Source: an uncultured Bdellovibrionales bacterium
Lineage (GTDB): Bacteria > Patescibacteriota > Minisyncoccia > Moranbacterales > UBA1568
Direction of reading: 5' to 3'
Assembly (NCBI GenBank): GCA_964550545.1
Contig: CAZJZN010000001.1
Coordinates: forward strand, 1-37,462
Length of the DNA: 37,462 nucleotides
In this document: piece by piece, positions 1 to 35,744 of the stretch
How positions within the stretch are numbered: the first letter of the stretch is position 1
How the letters are laid out: each line of letters starts with the position of its first letter
Notes under the pieces: model-generated
What the model was told of the DNA's origin: nothing
Seen by the model: only the letters and a program-made list of their open reading frames with translations
Databases searched by the model: none
Position numbers and translations under genes: made by a program

Positions 1-164
1 AAACGCGTAAGAAAAATTTATTTTTGTAATCTTGGAATATATTGAATCTTAGGTTTTGTTTTGTAGAAGCCATACTTCTCCATATTTGTAACCCGACAGA
101 TTTCCCTGTAAAAACAAGGTAAAATCGTATTGCACCAGCGAGATCTCATAAAACTCATCCAATT

Positions 165-180
165 TGTTTCACGTGGAACA
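165..180. promoter_or_regulatory. parS: parS site, exact consensus
   Basis: tgtttcacgtggaaca is the reverse complement of TGTTCCACGTGAAACA; 0 mismatches. Confidence 0.85.
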
Positions 181-344
181 TTTAAAATTAGAACATACTC
201 ATCATAAAAAATTTTACATGAAACTCGCACAAAACATCAAAAAATAATCTAACTGTTCGACTTACGCACACGAGCAGTATTAACCAAGGAAAACCCTCTA
301 TACATCCAGCAAAAACACAATTCCCCCTGCGCATTCACAAAACT

Positions 345-360
345 TGTTCCGTATGGAACA
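345..360. promoter_or_regulatory. Degenerate parS-like palindrome
   Basis: tgttccgtatggaaca keeps the outer arms TGTTCC/GGAACA, but the central CACGTG is replaced by CGTATG. Confidence 0.4.
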
Positions 361-385
361 AACAAAAATCACCCCATTGAAAAAT

Positions 386-401
386 ATTTCCACGTGGAAC
401 A
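386..401. promoter_or_regulatory. parS: parS-like site
   Basis: atttccacgtggaaca has an intact 14-bp core TTCCACGTGGAACA; the two outer 5' bases differ from consensus. Confidence 0.6.
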
Positions 402-547
402 AATACCCCTTAATACAGTGTTAAAAAACAGAAAATTTCTTTTTTTTCTAAAAAAAAGATCCGACCACAAAAAAGACACTCTCTCTCCATTTAAAAAATA
501 TCGGGAAGTAACGATTTTTTAATTAAGATTATGCAACGTAAGAGGGT

Positions 548-675
548 GTCTTAAAAGACTGTTTTTCTGGAGAAAATTGTTTTTTTGCTTGTCTTCCACT
601 GCGTTCGAAAGCCGCAAAAAAACAATTTTCCCCAGAAAAACGTTCAAATTTTCAGTTTTGTGAAGCTTTTAAGAC
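548..675. repeat. Long A/T-rich imperfect inverted repeat (nested hairpin)
   Basis: The 22-nt arm ctggagaaaattgtttttttgc (567-588) pairs with gcaaaaaaacaattttccccag (614-635) with 1 mismatch and a 25-nt loop. The outer arm gtcttaaaag (548-557) pairs with cttttaagac (666-675). Confidence 0.6.
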
Positions 676-796
676 AGTCTCTAAGAAGCCGCTAACTAAG
701 TATAAAAACATTCTTAGGTAATTCATCCCATCTTTCCATCCTACCAAAAATAGAAATCAGGATTATTATACCTCGCCATTCTTATAAAAAATTAAG

Positions 797-812
797 CATT
801 CCACGTGAAACA
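797..812. promoter_or_regulatory. parS: parS-like site (2 mismatches)
   Basis: cattccacgtgaaaca differs from TGTTCCACGTGAAACA at positions 1-2 only. Confidence 0.65.
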
Positions 813-980
813 TTCTCTCATCAAAAAATAGTATTTTACAAAAAAATCCTTACTATGAGAGCATTCTAAAAAAAATCACCCGATCTTAAAAACAAGAACA
901 TCTTCTATCTATACAGCCCATCAAACACCTAAACAATTACTCGTAGTTGTAATAAAATAGTTCTCTCAGAAAAAAATAGA

Positions 981-996
981 TGTTCCACGTAAAACA
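981..996. promoter_or_regulatory. parS: parS site (1 mismatch)
   Basis: tgttccacgtaaaaca; position 11 is A instead of G. Confidence 0.7.
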
Positions 997-1015
997 TTTC
1001 AAAATAACATCGAAA

Positions 1016-1031
1016 CATTCCACGTGAAACA
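1016..1031. promoter_or_regulatory. parS: parS-like site (2 mismatches)
   Basis: cattccacgtgaaaca is identical to the 797 copy. Confidence 0.65.
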
Positions 1032-1048
1032 ATGCGCCAAATACTATT

Positions 1049-1064
1049 TGTTCCACATGGAATA
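1049..1064. promoter_or_regulatory. parS-like site (3 mismatches)
   Basis: tgttccacatggaata. Confidence 0.45.
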
Positions 1065-1485
1065 CATACTTATTTGCCCTAATCGTCAGATCAAAAATCA
1101 AAATAAAAAAGATTTTCTTATCAGGGGCACCTTTTTTATAAACACGGAAGAAACACCCATTAATATGGCTAAAAAATGCTTTTAAAACAACTCATTCGCA
1201 AAAAATATCTATTCACATGGATATACGATACGCAACTGATAAGGCAATACATAAGCCAGGAAAAGAAATCGGAAATTAGCCTCGACTTTCTCCTTGGCCA
1301 TGGCTAAAAGCCTATCCACTTCGAATTAGGGTGTATACCACCACCTAGTCACATAAGGACAGATTTCTCCTTGTTATATATAAAAAATATAAAAAGGGGA
1401 GAGCTCTATAGAAAAACAAAAGACTCAATGGGAATAATCAGAACCGACCACGTAAATAAAGCGTGCTTTAAATTTAGTACTCAAA

Positions 1486-1501
1486 TTTTCCACGTGAAAC
1501 A
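1486..1501. promoter_or_regulatory. parS: parS site (1 mismatch)
   Basis: ttttccacgtgaaaca; position 2 is T instead of G. Confidence 0.7.
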
Positions 1502-1529
1502 ATGATCTCCGAAAAATATCCCACAAAAC

Positions 1530-1545
1530 TGTTCCATGTGAAACA
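1530..1545. promoter_or_regulatory. parS: parS site (1 mismatch)
   Basis: tgttccatgtgaaaca; position 8 is T instead of C. Confidence 0.7.
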
Positions 1546-1718
1546 TTTATCTTTTTGAAACAGGGCGCTTTAGAGAAAAACTCACTTCTATTTACAAAAG
1601 AACACTCCAACAAACTCAAAGAGTCCACGCCTCATACTGGGAGTTGTTTTCGTAAAATGACTCTCTCCTGCACAATATTTCAACTGATACTACAAAAAAC
1701 TTCTGAATTTCCTTAAAA

Positions 1719-1734
1719 TGTTTCACGTGAAATA
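1719..1734. promoter_or_regulatory. parS: parS site (1 mismatch) inside a 32-bp extended palindrome
   Basis: tgtttcacgtgaaata. The flanks extend it to ccttaaaatgtttcacgtgaaatattttaagg (1711-1742), a palindrome apart from one G/T pair. Confidence 0.7.
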
Positions 1735-2003
1735 TTTTAAGGACATTATACAAAAACAGTGTTACGCGAAAAGAATATTTATGAGACGATAAAAAAAGTA
1801 TATTTTTATAGAAATCGTGGTCAGTGATCCAATTGTAACCATCTACTACAGCTAGAAACAGGCACCTTTAAAGAAAAGATCTTCAAAACAGAGGACAATT
1901 AAAATCCACATAGACACCTTTAAACGTACTTTTTTTCCAGAAAAGACTCCAAAAAAAGATGTCTCTTGTGGAACACCTTCTTCAAAAAAATATACCCTCG
2001 ATA

Positions 2004-2019
2004 TGTTCCACGGGAAACA
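2004..2019. promoter_or_regulatory. parS: parS site (1 mismatch)
   Basis: tgttccacgggaaaca; position 10 is G instead of T. Confidence 0.7.
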
Positions 2020-2064
2020 CTTTACCTACTATACACAAGGATGCTGTCATAAAAAATCTAAAAC

Positions 2065-2080
2065 TGTTTCACGAGAAACT
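2065..2080. promoter_or_regulatory. parS-like site (2 mismatches)
   Basis: tgtttcacgagaaact. Confidence 0.5.
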
Positions 2081-2214
2081 TACAGGGATACTCAGGGTGG
2101 ATCAGAACAGAAACTACGGCTACTTTTAGAATGCAGACTCCGCACATAAAAACCTTTCATTCAAAAACGCTATAAATAGAACAAACCACTTTTGATGCGG
2201 CGAAGTGAGATAAT

Positions 2215-2230
2215 CGTTCCACGAGAAACA
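2215..2230. promoter_or_regulatory. parS-like site (2 mismatches)
   Basis: cgttccacgagaaaca. Confidence 0.5.
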
Positions 2231-2317
2231 AAAAAATGAAATCCTTCCGGAAACATTGTCGAAAATATTCCTTGTTATTTTTTGAGATACTATAGTAAAA
2301 AAACACTACTTCTCATA

Positions 2318-2333
2318 TGTTTCACGTGAAACA
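2318..2333. promoter_or_regulatory. parS: parS site, perfect palindrome
   Basis: tgtttcacgtgaaaca has 0 mismatches. It sits in a perfect 20-bp palindrome tatgtttcacgtgaaacata (2316-2335). Confidence 0.85.
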
Positions 2334-2509
2334 TACTCACTCATAGGAATCTCCTGCCCCTTTCAATACAGATTGTATTCAAAAACAGTCACTGAAAATA
2401 TCCTCACACCATTTCAACAAGTCATCAAGTCAAAAGCAATGCTTCCTACAAAAATAGTATGTCCGTCCACTGCACCCCTATTCACTTTTTCCGCCGAAAA
2501 AAATATGCT

Positions 2510-2537
2510 TTGACGAAAGCGGGAGGTGTGCTACGAT
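2510..2537 (+). promoter_or_regulatory. Candidate sigma70-type promoter for the tRNA-Ala/tRNA-Arg pair
   Basis: ttgacg (2510-2515), 16-nt spacer, tacgat (2532-2537), about 55 nt upstream of tRNA-Ala. Confidence 0.35.
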
Positions 2538-2593
2538 AGCCAACGAATCCGGGTCTTCTTTTGTTGAAAACTTGTGGACATCTTTCATAAAAG

Positions 2594-2666
2594 GGGCCGT
2601 TAGCTCATTTGGTAGAGCACTTCCATGGCATGGAAGGGGTGAGGAGTTCGAATCTCCTACGGTCCA
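2594..2666 (+). tRNA. tRNA-Ala (anticodon GGC)
   Basis: A 73-nt cloverleaf was folded by hand. The acceptor gggccgt/acggtcc has the G3:U70 Ala identity pair. The anticodon loop is atGGCat and the T-arm is aggag-ttcgaat-ctcct. Confidence 0.9.
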
Positions 2667-2683
2667 CGTATTTTCTTTCTTCT

Positions 2684-2755
2684 GCCCCCATAGTTCAACG
2701 GATAGAACGGTCCCGTCCTAAGGGAGCAATGTATGTTCGATTCATACTGGGGGCA
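2684..2755 (+). tRNA. tRNA-Arg (anticodon CCT)
   Basis: 72-nt cloverleaf with acceptor gccccca/tgggggc, anticodon loop gtCCTaa and T-arm gtatg-ttcgatt-catac. Confidence 0.85.
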
Positions 2756-3057
2756 CCCGCAAAAACCCTCTCGAAACCTTTGCTCACTATACCCATAGTA
2801 AGCAAAGGCGGTGTTGATGACCCTTTCGCCCTTGAACGCTCCCGAAAAATCTGGTAGGATATCCTTTCGTTCCTGCATTCGGGATATATTTGTAAGAGTT
2901 TATTTTAAAAGCCTTACAAAACTGAAAACTTGAACATTTTCTGAGGAAATTGTTTTTTGTAACTTTCCTATTTGCCAGTAGGCAGACGAACGAAGAGAGT
3001 GACCCTTTCTCCAAAAAAACAGCCTTTTAAGGCACGTTAGCCAAAACTTTCTATACT

Positions 3058-3420
3058 ATGACCATTCTTCGCACCGAAAAAGTCAGTGAGCGCATCCGAG
3101 AAGTACTTGGTAAACTTTTTGTTTCCGAAACACACCTCAAAGCAAGCGTCCTTGCCACCATCACAAGAGTACACGTCACGACTAATTTAAAAAGTGCGCG
3201 CGTTTTTGTAAGCGTTTTCCCCGAAAGTGAGACGGAATATTGTATGAAATCTCTCTCTTCAGAACTCTACAAACTCCAAAAAACTCTTCATACGCAACTT
3301 CGAATGCGCCCCGTTCCGCGAATCATTCTCGAGCGAGATTCAAGCGAATCCTCGGCTCAGAAAATTGAGGATGCTCTCGCAATCCTCAAACAAGAACGTT
3401 CATCCGGGAAATCACTATGA
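3058..3420 (+). CDS. rbfA: Ribosome-binding factor A
   Basis: 120-aa ORF whose size and N-terminal RTEKVSERIREVLGKLF pattern are typical of RbfA. Its end overlaps the next gene by ATGA. Confidence 0.8.
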   Translation: MTILRTEKVSERIREVLGKLFVSETHLKASVLATITRVHVTTNLKSARVFVSVFPESETEYCMKSLSSELYKLQKTLHTQLRMRPVPRIILERDSSESSAQKIEDALAILKQERSSGKSL

Positions 3421-4376
3421 AATCCTTCGTCTCGGAGTTTCGAACCCTTTCCTATATCATCGAGAAGTCCCCCTCCTTCTTGTTATGCGCGCATACAAGG
3501 CCGGACGTAGACACTCTCGGCGCGACACTGGCACTTTCTTGGTTCCTGAAACAAAAGGGGAAATCTGTTTCGATAGTGTGCTTCGATCCATTTCCTCCAC
3601 ATCTCACAGACATTCTCCCGGGAACATTCCTTCACCCGGACCAAGTGGACATAGCATCTTTCGGCACCGTTATTGCCTGTGACTCGGTTGACCGAGGATT
3701 TGATCGTCTGCTCCCAAAAATTCATTCAAGACAAGTCACCGTCACCATTGATCACCACCCGGATATCGCCGTTACAAGCGATCTTGAAATTATCGACACA
3801 GAAGCATCGTCAACCTGCGAAATTCTCTTTGCTTACTTCGAAAAAACAGGGACTTTTATCGGAAAAGAGATGGCGACCGCACTTCTCGCGGGCATCATTT
3901 TTGATACTGGGAATCTCCAGCATGCCTGTACAACGCCACATGTTATGGACATCGCAAGTACCCTTATGAAAAAAGGTGCTCCTCTTCGAAAAATCGTAGA
4001 CACTGTTTTTATCAATAAGAAAGTTTCAGCGCTTCGTCTCTGGGGAAGGGCATTCGAGCAATCCATACTCAACGAAAAAACAGGGATGCTTGCAACAGCT
4101 ATCACGCAGGAAGATATTGCCGAGTGTCAGGCATCGCCAGAAGACGCCTACCAGGTTGCCTCCGTACTCAGTACGGTTCCGGAAGCGAAGTTTGCCTTAG
4201 TACTTTTGGAACGTGACGAAAAAACTGTTCGCGCCAGTCTTCGTTCAATGGAACGACACAATGTTGATGTTTCCGCAATTGCCCACCGTTTTGGCGGTGG
4301 CGGCCATCGACTTGCGAGCGGATTTGAAATCCCAGGAAAAATAACCCGAACAGTCGAGGGGTGGACCGTGATATAA
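3417..4376 (+). CDS. DHH/DHHA1 phosphoesterase (NrnA-like oligoribonuclease/pAp phosphatase)
   Basis: Contains the DHH motif IDHHPD, an N-terminal HTRPDVDTLG motif, and the DHHA1 motif GGGGHRLASG near the C-terminus. Confidence 0.85.
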   Translation: MKSFVSEFRTLSYIIEKSPSFLLCAHTRPDVDTLGATLALSWFLKQKGKSVSIVCFDPFPPHLTDILPGTFLHPDQVDIASFGTVIACDSVDRGFDRLLPKIHSRQVTVTIDHHPDIAVTSDLEIIDTEASSTCEILFAYFEKTGTFIGKEMATALLAGIIFDTGNLQHACTTPHVMDIASTLMKKGAPLRKIVDTVFINKKVSALRLWGRAFEQSILNEKTGMLATAITQEDIAECQASPEDAYQVASVLSTVPEAKFALVLLERDEKTVRASLRSMERHNVDVSAIAHRFGGGGHRLASGFEIPGKITRTVEGWTVI

Positions 4377-6819: not shown

Positions 6820-7680
6820 TTATATTCTACCAAAACCAAGCGCATGAAAGCTTGATATTTTTTTCCTAGAAAAGCTTCCTCGTACTAAAGCTAACAAATC
6901 AAACGCAAACATTGCAAAGTCTATGTCAGACCAAGTTATCATTGCCGAGTAAAATTTACCCTCAACTTCGATAGAATCACTACTGGCTGCCCCGTCAGAT
7001 ATCATCGACAGTTGCTCCATTCCGGAGATTTTGTCCCCAACCAGCAGACGTATCTGGGCCGTATCATTCTTGTTCCTACCTTCAGCCGAGAGAATTATTC
7101 CACCATAAAATCTTTGACGAACTGCGAACTTCTTCAGTAAGGCAGCCGTAAACTCTTCCGTCTTTTTAATTTCAAAGAATACAATGGCTGAGAAAAAGCT
7201 TGCTGGAAGAAACTTTTTGTACATTTCACCTGGATCATCCACTCCTTTGAGGAGAGGTTTCAACTCATCAAGCTTTTCAAAAGCCTTGTCGACACTCTTT
7301 TTGTTAAAAGTACTCTTTACCTCAAGCACTCCACGGACGTAATCAACTGGGATTGCTCGCGATTGTCCTTGATCACTCTTATCTAAGTTTTTTTCAGTCC
7401 AAAGGATAGGACATTCTATTTTGTCATAAATAATTACGTCGAAATGACGCAGGGTATCATCTTCTAGATTTCCTTGTGTCAGAATAAACCCGGAGGTCAC
7501 TCCAAATCTTGCTGGAAGAAAACCTTCTAGCCAACTACGAAACGCCGCTTCAGCACAAAGACCGTGATCAACTTTTACAGCTTTGCCACTAGAAATTGCT
7601 TTGGCATATTCATATGCAGCAAGCATTGCTATTTTATTCTGAAGAAATTGTTGCCAACCCTCCTTTCTTTTATGTTCCAT
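6820..7680 (-). CDS. PD-(D/E)xK nuclease-fold protein (DUF6602-like), orphan
   Basis: Start taken at MEHKRKEGW. The motifs HGLCAEAAFRSWLEGFLPARFGVTSGFI, then FDVIIYD, then VLEVKST fit the D...(D/E)xK pattern. Family assignment is from memory only. The gene is visibly more AT-rich than its neighbours. Confidence 0.6.
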   Translation of the reverse strand: MEHKRKEGWQQFLQNKIAMLAAYEYAKAISSGKAVKVDHGLCAEAAFRSWLEGFLPARFGVTSGFILTQGNLEDDTLRHFDVIIYDKIECPILWTEKNLDKSDQGQSRAIPVDYVRGVLEVKSTFNKKSVDKAFEKLDELKPLLKGVDDPGEMYKKFLPASFFSAIVFFEIKKTEEFTAALLKKFAVRQRFYGGIILSAEGRNKNDTAQIRLLVGDKISGMEQLSMISDGAASSDSIEVEGKFYSAMITWSDIDFAMFAFDLLALVRGSFSRKKISSFHALGFGRI

Positions 7681-7767
7681 GGTTACTTGAGTTAGTAGTA
7701 CGCGTCCATAATAACCAGAAAAGTCTATTAAAAGCAAAACCGCCCCACAGAGGGACGGCTTGGTTTT

Positions 7768-7842
7768 TGGAGCGGGTAACGGGAGTCGAACCCGTATCTT
7801 GACCTTGGCAAGGTCACATAATAGCCGCTATACGATACCCGC
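7768..7842 (-). tRNA. tRNA-Gly (anticodon GCC), CCA encoded
   Basis: The reverse complement folds with acceptor gcgggta/tacccgc, anticodon loop ttGCCaa and T-arm acggg-ttcgact-cccgt, and has a 3' tcca. The D-stem is weak (A/T with G-U). Confidence 0.85.
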
Positions 7843-7927
7843 TTACTCCACCAGCTGGCGGATTCGGCGGGCAAGCCCGCCATTTCCAATACTAACGAAA
7901 AGCTCTCTTTCCCGCAATATTTTCCCG
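7843..7927. repeat. Unassigned spacer carrying short repeats shared with 24209-24384
   Basis: ctccaccagct (7846-7856) is identical to 24209-24219. cagctggcggatt (7852-7864) is identical to 24372-24384. It also has a GC hairpin ggcggg-caag-cccgcc. No cloverleaf can be drawn. Confidence 0.4.
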
Positions 7928-7999
7928 TGGGACCGGCTGGATTCGGACCAGCGACCAAGAGATTATGAGTCCCCTGCTCTACCGCTGAGCTACGGTCCC
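7928..7999 (-). tRNA. tRNA-Met/Ile2 class (anticodon CAT), elongator type
   Basis: The reverse complement folds with acceptor gggaccg/cggtccc (G1-C72, so not an initiator) and anticodon loop ctCATaa. The T-arm gctgg-tccgaat-ccagc has C at loop position 2. Confidence 0.85.
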
Positions 8000-8487: not shown

Positions 8488-8566
8488 TGGGGATAGAGGG
8501 ACTTGCCCCGTCATCCGACGGGACCGTCCGGTCGAATAACCGGACGAACCCTCATGCCATAAAGGC
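8488..8566 (-). pseudogene. Duplicated 3' part of tRNA-Leu(GAG), variable arm to acceptor, interrupted in the T-loop by element E2
   Basis: Once 8505-8545 is removed, ggggatagagggact[t]gaaccctcatgccataaaggc matches 8600-8636 of the intact gene with 1 substitution. The 5' half is absent. Confidence 0.65.
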
Positions 8567-8598
8567 TTCCAAATCGTTCTCTCGACTTTTTTGGCGGG

Positions 8599-8680
8599 TG
8601 GGGATAGAGGGACTCGAACCCTCATGCCATAAAGGCCACGCCCCTCAAACGTGTGTGTATACCAATTCCACCATATCCCC
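8599..8680 (-). tRNA. tRNA-Leu (anticodon GAG), type II
   Basis: The reverse complement folds with acceptor ggggata/tatcccc, anticodon loop ttGAGgg, variable arm gcctttatggc and T-arm gaggg-ttcgagt-ccctc. Confidence 0.85.
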
Positions 8681-8764
8681 AAAAACAAAACTGGAACGCA
8701 AACGAAACAAAAGCCGCAATCCGAAGCCAAAAACATCAGACGACACTTACCACAAAATTCCCGG

Positions 8765-21741: not shown

Positions 21742-22863
21742 ATGAAACGCGCACAAACCGAAAACATCCTCAAAGATCTCGAGAAAAAAATGGTCTTCCT
21801 GGTGGGTCCCCGCCAAGTGGGGAAGACGTGGCTCTCGAAAGAAATAGCGAAAACGAGCGATGTTCCCGTCTATTTAAGCTTCGATCAAGCGGAAGACCGC
21901 GAAATCATCAAAAAAGAGGCGTGGCCTGTCGGGACGACGCTTCTTGTCCTCGATGAACTCCACAAAATGCGAGGATGGAAAAACTATTTGAAGGGAGTTT
22001 TTGATACCAAAAATCCCACTCTCAAGATTCTCGTGACCGGAAGTGCACGACTCAATACCTTTCGACAGGCCGGCGATTCACTCGCAGGAAGGTTTTTCAT
22101 CCACCGACTCCTTCCGTTTTCTCTCTCGGAATTGAAACGTATCGGGGAACCGTCCGATATGGAAAAACTCATCACCCGAGGCGGTTTCCCGGAACCGCTC
22201 CTCACCGAAACAGAGGAGGACGCCGAACGATGGCGGAGTCAGTATTTTGACGGACTCATCCGAACCGATATTTTGGATTTTGAAACCGTACACAATTTGA
22301 ATGCTGTCCACATGACACTGGAACTCCTCCGCCGTCGCGTGGGATCGCCCGTTTCACTCGCCGGTATCGCCGAAGACGTGCAGGTGTCCCCGATCACTGT
22401 GAAACGGTATCTGGAAATTTTCGAGTCACTATTCATCATTTTCCGCGCAACACCCTATACGAAAAACATCGCGCGCTCCATTCTCAAGGAACCTAAGGTG
22501 TATTTCTTCGATACGGGACTCGTCAAAGGGGATATCGGGGCACAATTTGAAAACTTCGTCGCCGTGAGCCTCCTCAAACATACCTATGCGCTCTCGGATA
22601 TGACCGGGAAACAGCATGAACTCAAGTATTTGCGAACCAAAGACGGAAAAGAAACGGATTTCGTGCTCGCGGAAAACGGCGTTGCCACCGAACTGGTAGA
22701 AGCGAAGACTGCGGAAAGCGATCCGAGTTCGAATCTCCTCTATTTTTCAAAAAAATATGGCATCAAGGGAACACAAGTGGTCAAAGATGTAAAACAAGAA
22801 GCGTCTTTTCAAGACATCAATATCGTTTCAGCTGAAAAATATCTAGAAAATCTCTTTTTGTAA
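21742..22863 (+). CDS. AAA+ ATPase with a C-terminal DUF4143-like domain
   Basis: Walker A is GPRQVGKT and Walker B is LLVLDELH. The length and C-terminal region fit the AAA_14/DUF4143 architecture. Confidence 0.75.
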   Translation: MKRAQTENILKDLEKKMVFLVGPRQVGKTWLSKEIAKTSDVPVYLSFDQAEDREIIKKEAWPVGTTLLVLDELHKMRGWKNYLKGVFDTKNPTLKILVTGSARLNTFRQAGDSLAGRFFIHRLLPFSLSELKRIGEPSDMEKLITRGGFPEPLLTETEEDAERWRSQYFDGLIRTDILDFETVHNLNAVHMTLELLRRRVGSPVSLAGIAEDVQVSPITVKRYLEIFESLFIIFRATPYTKNIARSILKEPKVYFFDTGLVKGDIGAQFENFVAVSLLKHTYALSDMTGKQHELKYLRTKDGKETDFVLAENGVATELVEAKTAESDPSSNLLYFSKKYGIKGTQVVKDVKQEASFQDINIVSAEKYLENLFL

Positions 22864-22868
22864 AATCT

Positions 22869-23270
22869 ATGACCCTCTCTGTATTTTCCCTATTTTTCCG
22901 GAAAGATGAGCCGATCGGGAGGAAGGGCGAGCGAGTCGCGGCAGAATATTTGAAGAAAAAGGGCTTCAAAGTTCTCGAGATGAACTATAAGAATCCAAAA
23001 GGGAAACAGCTCGGAGAAATAGACATCATCACACAGAAAGAAGGTCATATTGTTTTTGTGGAAGTGAAAACACGACGAGGAGAACCGGGGAAAGCCTTCC
23101 CGGAAGACAATTTGACTCCCGGAAAACTCCACAAACTCGAAAAAATCGCCGCCCATTACCTCCAGACACACCGGGAAATCGACACTCCCTATCATTTCGA
23201 TGCCGTCGCCGTCCTCTTCGACGCCACAGGAACCGCCACCATCCGCCATTTCGAACACATATTCTCCTAA
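22869..23270 (+). CDS. yraN: YraN-family (UPF0102) endonuclease-like protein
   Basis: RKGERVAAEYLKKKGFKVLEMNY, then GEIDIITQKEGHIVFVEVKTRRG, and a C-terminal FDAVAV. Confidence 0.85.
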   Translation: MTLSVFSLFFRKDEPIGRKGERVAAEYLKKKGFKVLEMNYKNPKGKQLGEIDIITQKEGHIVFVEVKTRRGEPGKAFPEDNLTPGKLHKLEKIAAHYLQTHREIDTPYHFDAVAVLFDATGTATIRHFEHIFS

Positions 23271-35595: not shown

Positions 35596-35744
35596 CACCT
35601 TTGCGTAAAAATCTTAGGTTTCGCCTTCGATGATTCCCTTTTCCTCACGGAATCGAATCTAGGCGGCGAGACAATCGAAAGGGCGGTCGTATTTCACGTC
35701 GCACACTTGGGGGGGTATTTGCGTTTTTTCAAAACGCAACGCAG

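Follow-up and report, generated by a model that had tools for sequence, protein, structure and literature searches.

The repeat centromeres of plasmids, such as sopC of F (12 × 43 bp) or the P1 or R1-type iterated sites, consist of plasmid-specific sequences arranged with a fixed unit and phasing beside a parAB or sopAB operon. On the chromosome of Myxococcus xanthus, 22–24 parS sites occupy ~3 kb, ~4 kb upstream of parAB and 30–35 kb from oriC, and binding of ParB to this cluster has been demonstrated (PMC3899335, PMC3778016); the consensus of its sites is TGTTCCACGTGGAACG (PMC3899335), a sequence that contains no stop codon in any frame. Corynebacterium glutamicum carries 10 parS sites in 35 kb, 73 kb from oriC (PMC7083940). 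Here we describe an array of parS palindromes at 165–2333 of a 37,462-nucleotide stretch of DNA (the window; contig CAZJZN010000001.1 of assembly GCA_964550545.1), which is probably a chromosomal centromere, and a candidate ParB-loading region, of Candidatus Moranbacteria.

The array resembles the M. xanthus cluster in being chromosomal, in using the canonical 16-bp parS at irregular spacing and, in a relative, in lying tens of kb from dnaA, and its density is similar (~7 sites per kb in M. xanthus, 6.4 in the window and 7.3 across the Moranbacteria arrays). The consensus TGTTCCACGTGGAACG is moreover close to TGTTCCACGTGGAACA, the variant used by most Moranbacteria. The M. xanthus cluster adjoins parAB, however, whereas the Moranbacteria array has no parAB within 10 kb; the Moranbacteria genome is 8 times smaller and belongs to the candidate phyla radiation (CPR), the window sites are much more degenerate, and in most Moranbacteria relatives the array lies in frame within a membrane-protein gene, which sets it further apart. 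With the parS sets of C. glutamicum, Bacillus subtilis and Caulobacter it shares the motif, a position off oriC itself that may be origin-proximal, sites that may be intragenic and a presumed role in ParB nucleation and SMC loading, but the density of those sets is 20–100 times lower and their sites are spread over many genes. Like the plasmid centromeres, the array packs many sites into a short non-coding stretch that may form one large partition complex; unlike them, it has no fixed unit, no phasing and no adjoining parAB.

A preliminary description of the window had likened the array to a plasmid-style iteron centromere, on the premise that chromosomal parS sites are few and scattered. Against the likeness stand the irregular spacing of 33–437 bp, the absence of parAB within 10 kb in ~95 related loci and the chromosomal context. 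The premise was too narrow, as the 22 sites in 3 kb of M. xanthus provide a precedent for the density seen here (PMC3899335), and small tandem clusters beside parB proved common in metagenomes among the matches listed. A dense chromosomal parS cluster is thus already known as such. What is new is the phylum, the separation from parAB and the origin of the array inside coding sequence. We found no open paper that mentions parS in CPR bacteria, and this is the first parS locus that we found described there; nor did the literature yield a description of an array inside an O-antigen-ligase gene or of such an in-frame arrangement. Chromosome segregation in CPR has hardly been studied, and the locus offers a concrete, conserved centromere candidate for a whole CPR class.

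The parS array in the window

The window was searched with the pattern TGTTNCACGTGAAACA, allowing up to 3 mismatches, and dinucleotide-preserving shuffles served as the null. The 28 strand matches comprise 14 sites at 165–2333 and one 3-mismatch match at 35690, against a shuffle expectation of 0.92 and a maximum of 4; outside the array, the remaining 35 kb therefore hold a single weak match, which is at chance level. When scored against the palindromic form TGTTYCACGTGRAACA, again with up to 3 mismatches, the array has 15 sites, the addition being the one at 1960 (Table 1). Taken as 16-bp parS palindromes, 2 of the sites match exactly, 5 deviate at one position and 7–8 at 2–4 positions. One perfect 8-bp half-site is retained in 13 of the 15 sites, and perfect half-sites (TGTTYCAC) number 15 in the first 2.4 kb and 2 in the other 35 kb. 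The sites follow each other at 33–437 bp without a fixed repeat unit. Two of them are set in longer palindromes, of which that at 1706–1747 is 92% complementary and that at 2316–2335, of 20 bp, is perfect. The preliminary description had reported 14 copies, the same mismatch classes (two exact, five with one mismatch, the rest with 2–4), a half-site at 1966–1975, the same range of spacing and extended palindromes (at 1711–1742 and 2316–2335); all of these were recovered, the half-site as part of 1960–1975.

The tract that holds the array had been called free of open reading frames (ORFs) and AT-rich, which agrees with our count of ~45 stops in each frame, the lack of any ORF of 100 amino acids or more and a GC content of 0.32–0.34, compared with ~0.48 elsewhere in the window. 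An Rfam search of the tract brought only two tRNAs above threshold. An assembly artefact had been named as a possible cause of the array, but contigs of six other assemblies of the same species contain the same sites in the same order, and one of them (locus L001, 121.8 kb; L numbers denote the loci collected here) spans the tract completely, so that this explanation does not apply. The complete intergenic tract occupies 6421–9530 of L001 (3.1 kb) and reaches ~600 bp to the left of the window start, and no further sites occur in the 7 kb left of the window in that contig.

Conservation of the array across Moranbacteria

By its NrnA homologues the window belongs to Candidatus Moranbacteria/Moraniibacteriota (CPR, Patescibacteria), and its housekeeping gene content (gyrA, pnp, rbfA, tRNAs) identifies it as chromosomal. 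The sample comprised 80 Moranbacteria loci surrounding nrnA, to which four from close relatives were added. Arrays of 4–19 parS sites are present in ~30 species, 1–2 kb upstream of nrnA and always beside tRNA-Ala, tRNA-Arg and rbfA, so that the array is indeed kept in synteny in related genomes, a point that the preliminary description had left for checking. The position of the array is fixed throughout the lineage, in the gene order TilS, FtsH, two hypothetical genes and a TSP3-like gene, then the array, then tRNA-Ala, tRNA-Arg, rbfA and nrnA, and the array-bearing species form one clade on the NrnA tree. Closed genomes are available for two sister species (1.09 and 1.11 Mb). In the closed genomes CP064974.1 and CP064989.1, which are open to follow-up work, the array lies at ~929.7–931.4 kb and at ~560.6–562.3 kb, respectively.

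Site density was counted in 97 Moranbacteria loci (1.42 Mb), admitting at most one mismatch. The arrays, which add up to 46.6 kb, contain 342 sites, and the other 1.37 Mb contain 3, which gives densities of 7.3 per kb in the arrays and 0.002 per kb in the remainder. This rules out a dispersed repeat, and the concentration of the motif here, which had been proposed from the window, extends to the related DNA. Two of the 3 off-array sites sit at a contig end and probably belong to a truncated array. Relatives reach 17 perfect palindromes out of 17, and two palindromic variants, TGTTTCACGTGAAACA and TGTTCCACGTGGAACA, are in use among the lineages; both are known forms of parS.

The array lies inside a Wzy_C-like gene in most relatives

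Where the array is upstream of nrnA, 17 species have all their sites within one intact minus-strand ORF of 430–730 amino acids. The same host ORF, again with all the sites, is found in L048 and L069, where the gene is located elsewhere. Such ORF-embedded arrays have 4–17 sites per gene, and L026 has 14 perfect ATGTTTCACGTGAAACAT sites in an ORF of 664 amino acids. The host ORF matches the Pfam family Wzy_C (O-antigen ligase, PF04932), keeps the conserved motifs and the multi-pass topology of the family, and bears the NCBI name “O-antigen ligase family protein”. It departs from ordinary PF04932 members in its loops, which are enlarged by up to ~300 amino acids of parS-encoding filler. The sites map to hydrophilic loops or to the edges of transmembrane segments, and in the long versions of the protein the loops are expanded and hold 3–4 sites each.

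The peptides encoded by the sites are CSTWN in frame 0, NVSRET/NVPRGT in frame 1 and MFHVKH/MFHVEH in frame 2. The 188 perfect sites in 19 ORF-embedded arrays use frames 0, 1 and 2 in 39, 84 and 65 cases, respectively. An A at position 12, which creates a TGA stop in frame 0, occurs in 0 of 39 sites in that frame and in 20 of 149 sites in the others. The use of all three frames, together with the avoidance of the stop variant, indicates that the palindrome is selected as DNA and accommodated in an ORF whose integrity is also preserved. A profile search for the host family returned 514 members, and among the best 120 of these 514, 117 contain one or more peptides encoded by parS, with a maximum of 17 in one protein, although the ranking is skewed towards such proteins because the profile itself contains the peptides. 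In L026, a 172-nt segment with three parS sites is duplicated at 98% identity within the Wzy-like ORF (7770–7941 and 8514–8685), from which it follows that arrays grow by in-frame segmental duplication.

In the dnaA regions of other Moranbacteria (L211, L212, L215), which retain the classic origin arrangement of rpmH-rnpA-yidC-jag followed by dnaA-dnaN-DciA, a glycosyltransferase cluster and two Wzy_C paralogues that lack parS are found 5–8 kb away. Several Wzy_C paralogues thus exist, of which only one hosts the array.

The ORF-embedded array is the ancestral arrangement, and the array of the window is an ORF-free, degenerate descendant of one that was written in frame in the loops of a Wzy-like gene. 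The earlier view of a non-coding tract accordingly holds for the window, which is free of ORFs, but describes a derived state, since in most relatives the array occupies an intact Wzy_C-like ORF. The ORF-embedded form constitutes a natural double code, in which up to 17 protein-binding palindromes are written in three frames of one conserved gene.

Loss of the host gene and constraint on the sites

The host ORF is absent from the subclade formed by the window, L007 and L087–L090, and it is independently absent from L011, L018, L020, L028 and L049, which makes at least five losses; in L036 it is interrupted by a single stop. Some of the ORF-free arrays are still perfect, with 16 of 16 sites in L011 and 9 of 9 in L020. 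Because the arrays persist after the gene is lost, it is the array that is the element under selection. No intact PF04932 ORF runs across the sites of the window, where each frame is closed by the stops mentioned above and no similarity to the family is left. We considered that the tract might be a frameshifted pseudogene, but neither a hidden Markov model (HMM) built from the intact ORFs nor a motif-masked tblastn search detected a remnant in the window, L001, L007, L087 or L090, and the HMM and tblastn matches in L011, L018 and L020 come from the motif itself or from overlap with a tRNA. Strand composition was likewise rejected as a coding relic: the tract in the window and that in L087/L090 have skews of opposite sign, which track the flanking DNA.

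Genomes of the window subclade have 0–2 perfect sites each, whereas in sister lineages nearly all sites are perfect, and many of the changes are transitions in the central CpG (CpG to TpG or CpA within CACGTG). No alignment is possible outside the tRNAs among the tracts of the window, L007, L087 and L090, and still each of them contains 10–21 recognisable sites, and those of every species in the subclade are at least 81% identical to the consensus. In the window lineage only the sites remain recognisable because the spacers have drifted past alignability. Variation among strains of the window species affects 2 of 240 positions inside sites and 100 of 1957 outside (Fisher p = 0.001); in the CP064974-type species, for which the pair L087/L089 was compared, the figures are 2 of 304 and 66 of 2458 (p = 0.03), with the two in-site changes both located at the degenerate position 5. 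Within-species polymorphism is thus 4- to 6-fold lower in the sites in two independent species. The sites of the window lineage are degenerate yet under purifying selection, and synteny, the use of three frames with stop avoidance, and polymorphism all show that the sites are conserved as DNA elements. The arrays form a graded natural series, from perfect sites in an ORF through perfect sites without an ORF to degenerate sites under constraint, which bears on how many sites ParB needs and how good they have to be.

Relation to the replication origin

In JAPLXC010000002.1, dnaA (38,198–39,574) and the Wzy-parS gene (75,271–76,776, with 4 sites) are 35.7 kb apart, and the left flank matches that of the window (TSP3-like gene, hypothetical genes, FtsH, TilS). 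A 97-kb JGI contig likewise holds both dnaA and a 10-site Wzy-parS gene. The pair rbfA-nrnA directly adjoins dnaA in L023, L033 and the 97-kb contig, and in L153 homologues of the two genes left of the array are found a few kb from dnaA. The array is thus linked to the origin region in relatives. The search for DnaA returned matches from other Moranbacteria lineages only, none of them from the window subclade, and the dnaA neighbourhoods examined in those other lineages contained neither parS nor ParB.

We also considered the tract as a possible oriC and rejected it, as it combines neither of the expected features, a DnaA-box cluster and a skew switch. Since the GC skew keeps its sign across the array, the array is not at oriC itself.

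On the plus strand of the window, C exceeds G and A exceeds T over all 37 kb, including the tract (GC skew −0.21, AT skew +0.18). In sister species that share the gene order (L007, L087, L090), both signs are reversed (+0.18, −0.18). In the genome of the window, the region as a whole seems to be inverted relative to replication, with gyrA, pnp and rbfA on the apparent lagging strand.

Dense arrays elsewhere and searches for ParB

A metagenome scan for pairs of perfect sites separated by at most 45 bp yielded at least 120 loci (L091–L210). Most of those listed have 2–4 sites, and 44 of them include a ParB gene, usually ~1 kb from the sites. Such parS pairs near ParB fit the view that the motif is read by ParB in general. 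Tandem pairs and triplets ~35–60 bp apart and ~1 kb from parB are common among the matches listed, at GC contents of 0.26–0.74. Several low-GC contigs (L101, L145, L148) have 3–5 sites beside gyrA, and L101 and L148 also carry dnaA.

The only locus with at least 10 sites among the matches listed is L153 (metagenome contig Ga0180436_10000184), where 15 perfect sites occupy 1 kb of non-coding DNA (1044–2027) between a tRNA gene and the series hypothetical gene-dnaA-dnaN. This array, directly upstream of dnaA-dnaN, is independent of the one described above and is placed right in the origin region. The contig is Parcubacteria-like, with proteins that resemble Moranbacteria ones, and dense free-standing arrays therefore exist in at least one other Parcubacteria-like lineage.

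As had been noted before, no parA, parB or smc gene is found in the window: a Pfam search of its main ORFs and of the left-flank ORFs returned no ParA, ParB or SMC. A tblastn search of the related loci with B. subtilis Spo0J gave no match in Moranbacteria DNA; the same query finds the ParB genes of the 44 metagenome loci among the 120 matches listed and thus provides a positive control. Neither of the two conserved hypothetical proteins next to the array is DNA-binding; they are membrane or secreted proteins.

Interpretation of the locus

Judged from sequence, the canonical ParB-binding palindrome forms a conserved array specific to this locus, maintained under purifying selection in a region that is linked to the origin in relatives. 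We think it likely that the tract is the chromosomal centromere of these bacteria. Each 16-bp palindrome would be a loading site for a ParB dimer, and, by analogy with ParABS systems, ParB at parS would bind cytidine triphosphate (CTP), close into a clamp and slide onto the flanking DNA. An array of many sites might raise the loading rate and build a larger partition complex, which would be moved by ParA and be able to load SMC. These steps of loading, spreading and segregation are inferred from what has been established for ParABS.

Several observations weigh against the centromere interpretation. The weakest link is ParB, which was not found in the DNA sampled around nrnA and dnaA: parA, parB and smc are absent from the window, from the 7 kb to its left and from the 10 kb around the array in ~95 related loci, and no ParB lies within 10 kb of dnaA in those examined. 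Only 2 of the 15 window sites are perfect, and 8 of 15 deviate at two or more positions; in C. glutamicum, ParB is not recruited to sites that carry at least three mismatches (PMC7083940), which raises the question of how many of the window sites are active. In no locus does the GC skew switch sign at the array, and the tract contains no DnaA-box cluster.

The missing ParB could mean that the array has a different reader, either a Noc-type ParB paralogue or a regulator that recognises the CACGTG core, and that it serves nucleoid organisation or regulation and not segregation. No ParB was encountered in ~1.4 Mb of Moranbacteria DNA, all of it around nrnA or dnaA, and the array does not stand beside parAB as most clusters in other bacteria do. 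However, that DNA represents two neighbourhoods of a 1.1-Mb genome, and the match to the cross-phylum ParB site extends over all 16 positions and not just over the CACGTG core. The lineages use exactly the two known palindromic variants, and the second of these is the one close to the M. xanthus consensus (PMC3899335). We therefore regard a different reader as unlikely. It also seems quite unlikely that the array is a decaying relic, that is, an ancestral centromere which lost its function in the window subclade, through loss of ParB or relocation of the centromere, and which is now eroding together with its host gene. The scarcity of perfect sites in the subclade, the CpG transitions in the central CACGTG and the disappearance of the host ORF without a trace would all fit such decay. 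It would not lead one to expect the 10–21 sites with at least 81% identity to the consensus that every species retains between unalignable spacers, nor the 4- to 6-fold reduction of polymorphism in the sites of two species, with the L087/L089 changes confined to a degenerate position, nor the perfect half-site in 13 of the 15 window sites.

That the element is a short, repeated palindrome, and that a 172-nt unit has been duplicated at 98% identity in L026, might suggest a mobile or dispersed repeat of the kind of repetitive extragenic palindromes (REP) or miniature inverted-repeat transposable elements (MITE), or else a peptide module selected at the protein level. The data contradict the former, as only 3 sites occur in 1.37 Mb off the arrays, which is not the scatter typical of REP or MITE sequences; as to the latter, the 16-mer is read in three frames within one protein, so that no single peptide is conserved, and the arrays persist without any ORF. 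Both are highly improbable. An assembly artefact or collapsed repeat, which might be suspected because several contigs, the window included, break within the tract, is scarcely credible in view of the six other assemblies with the same site order, the 121.8-kb contig that spans the tract and the two closed 1.1-Mb genomes of sister species that span its equivalent. A further proposal takes the centromere interpretation one step further: the main chromosomal centromere may have evolved inside the membrane-protein gene with the two functionally coupled, a coupling that the window lineage would have broken, leaving a free-standing, degenerate array. ParB spreading might then control the Wzy-like gene, or co-translational membrane insertion of the Wzy-like product might tether the centromere to the envelope in cells without known polar anchors. 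This proposal is speculative, and we are inclined to doubt it.

Features of the window and neighbouring genes

The individual sites and the conserved landmarks of the locus are collected in Table 1. Besides rbfA and nrnA, the window encodes a UDG-family gene, gyrA, pnp, a UvrD-like helicase, a Xer-like recombinase and nine tRNAs.

Table 1. Coordinates of the parS array and of its landmarks in the window; mismatches are counted against the palindromic form TGTTYCACGTGRAACA.
Feature	Position	Strand	Mismatches	Remarks
Gene-free AT-rich tract holding the array	1..2593			No long ORF; GC 0.32–0.34
parS site TGTTTCACGTGGAACA	165..180		0	Exact match to consensus (minus-strand reading)
Weak parS-like site TGTTCCGTATGGAACA	345..360		3	
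parS-like site ATTTCCACGTGGAACA	386..401		2	One half-site perfect
parS-like site CATTCCACGTGAAACA	797..812		2	
parS site TGTTCCACGTAAAACA	981..996		1	
parS-like site CATTCCACGTGAAACA	1016..1031		2	
parS-like site TGTTCCACATGGAATA	1049..1064		2	2–3 mismatches
parS site TTTTCCACGTGAAACA	1486..1501		1	
parS site TGTTCCATGTGAAACA	1530..1545		1	Holds one of only two in-site positions varying among strains
parS site TGTTTCACGTGAAATA	1719..1734		1	Centre of extended palindrome 1706–1747
Half-site TGTCTCTTGTGGAACA	1960..1975		3	One perfect GTGGAACA half
parS site TGTTCCACGGGAAACA	2004..2019		1	
parS-like site TGTTTCACGAGAAACT	2065..2080		2	
parS-like site CGTTCCACGAGAAACA	2215..2230		2	
Perfect palindromic parS TGTTTCACGTGAAACA	2318..2333		0	Inside 20-bp palindrome 2316–2335
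tRNA-Ala(GGC) and tRNA-Arg(CCT)	2594..2758	+		Bounds the array on the right; conserved in all related loci
rbfA and nrnA (DHH/DHHA1)	3058..4376	+		Synteny anchors for recovering the array in relatives

Within the tract, an inverted-repeat element of ~146 bp lies at 541–686, its 28-nt arms (561–588 and 614–641) being 96% complementary. A related inverted copy is found at ~2905–2958, between tRNA-Arg and rbfA, and further copies occur in sister species (L007, 6698–6865 and 7933–8101; L087, 18186–18225). For the stretch 561–641, Rfam returned only generic hairpin (miRNA) models, far below threshold; the element could be a MITE-like or terminator-like dispersed element.

On a 3315-bp contig of the same species (L005), rbfA is followed after 1.2 kb by a 3D-domain gene, and neither nrnA nor the UDG-family gene was called there; this arrangement is either a structural variant or a chimeric contig. 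Further into the window, a gene for a DUF6602 protein lies at 6820–7737 on the minus strand, and an AAA_14/DUF4143 ATPase gene followed by one for a UPF0102/NERD-like nuclease lies at 21742–23270 on the plus strand. These are possible defence or mobile-element genes. In L001, the place that corresponds to the DUF6602 gene is taken by a Fic/HTH pair.

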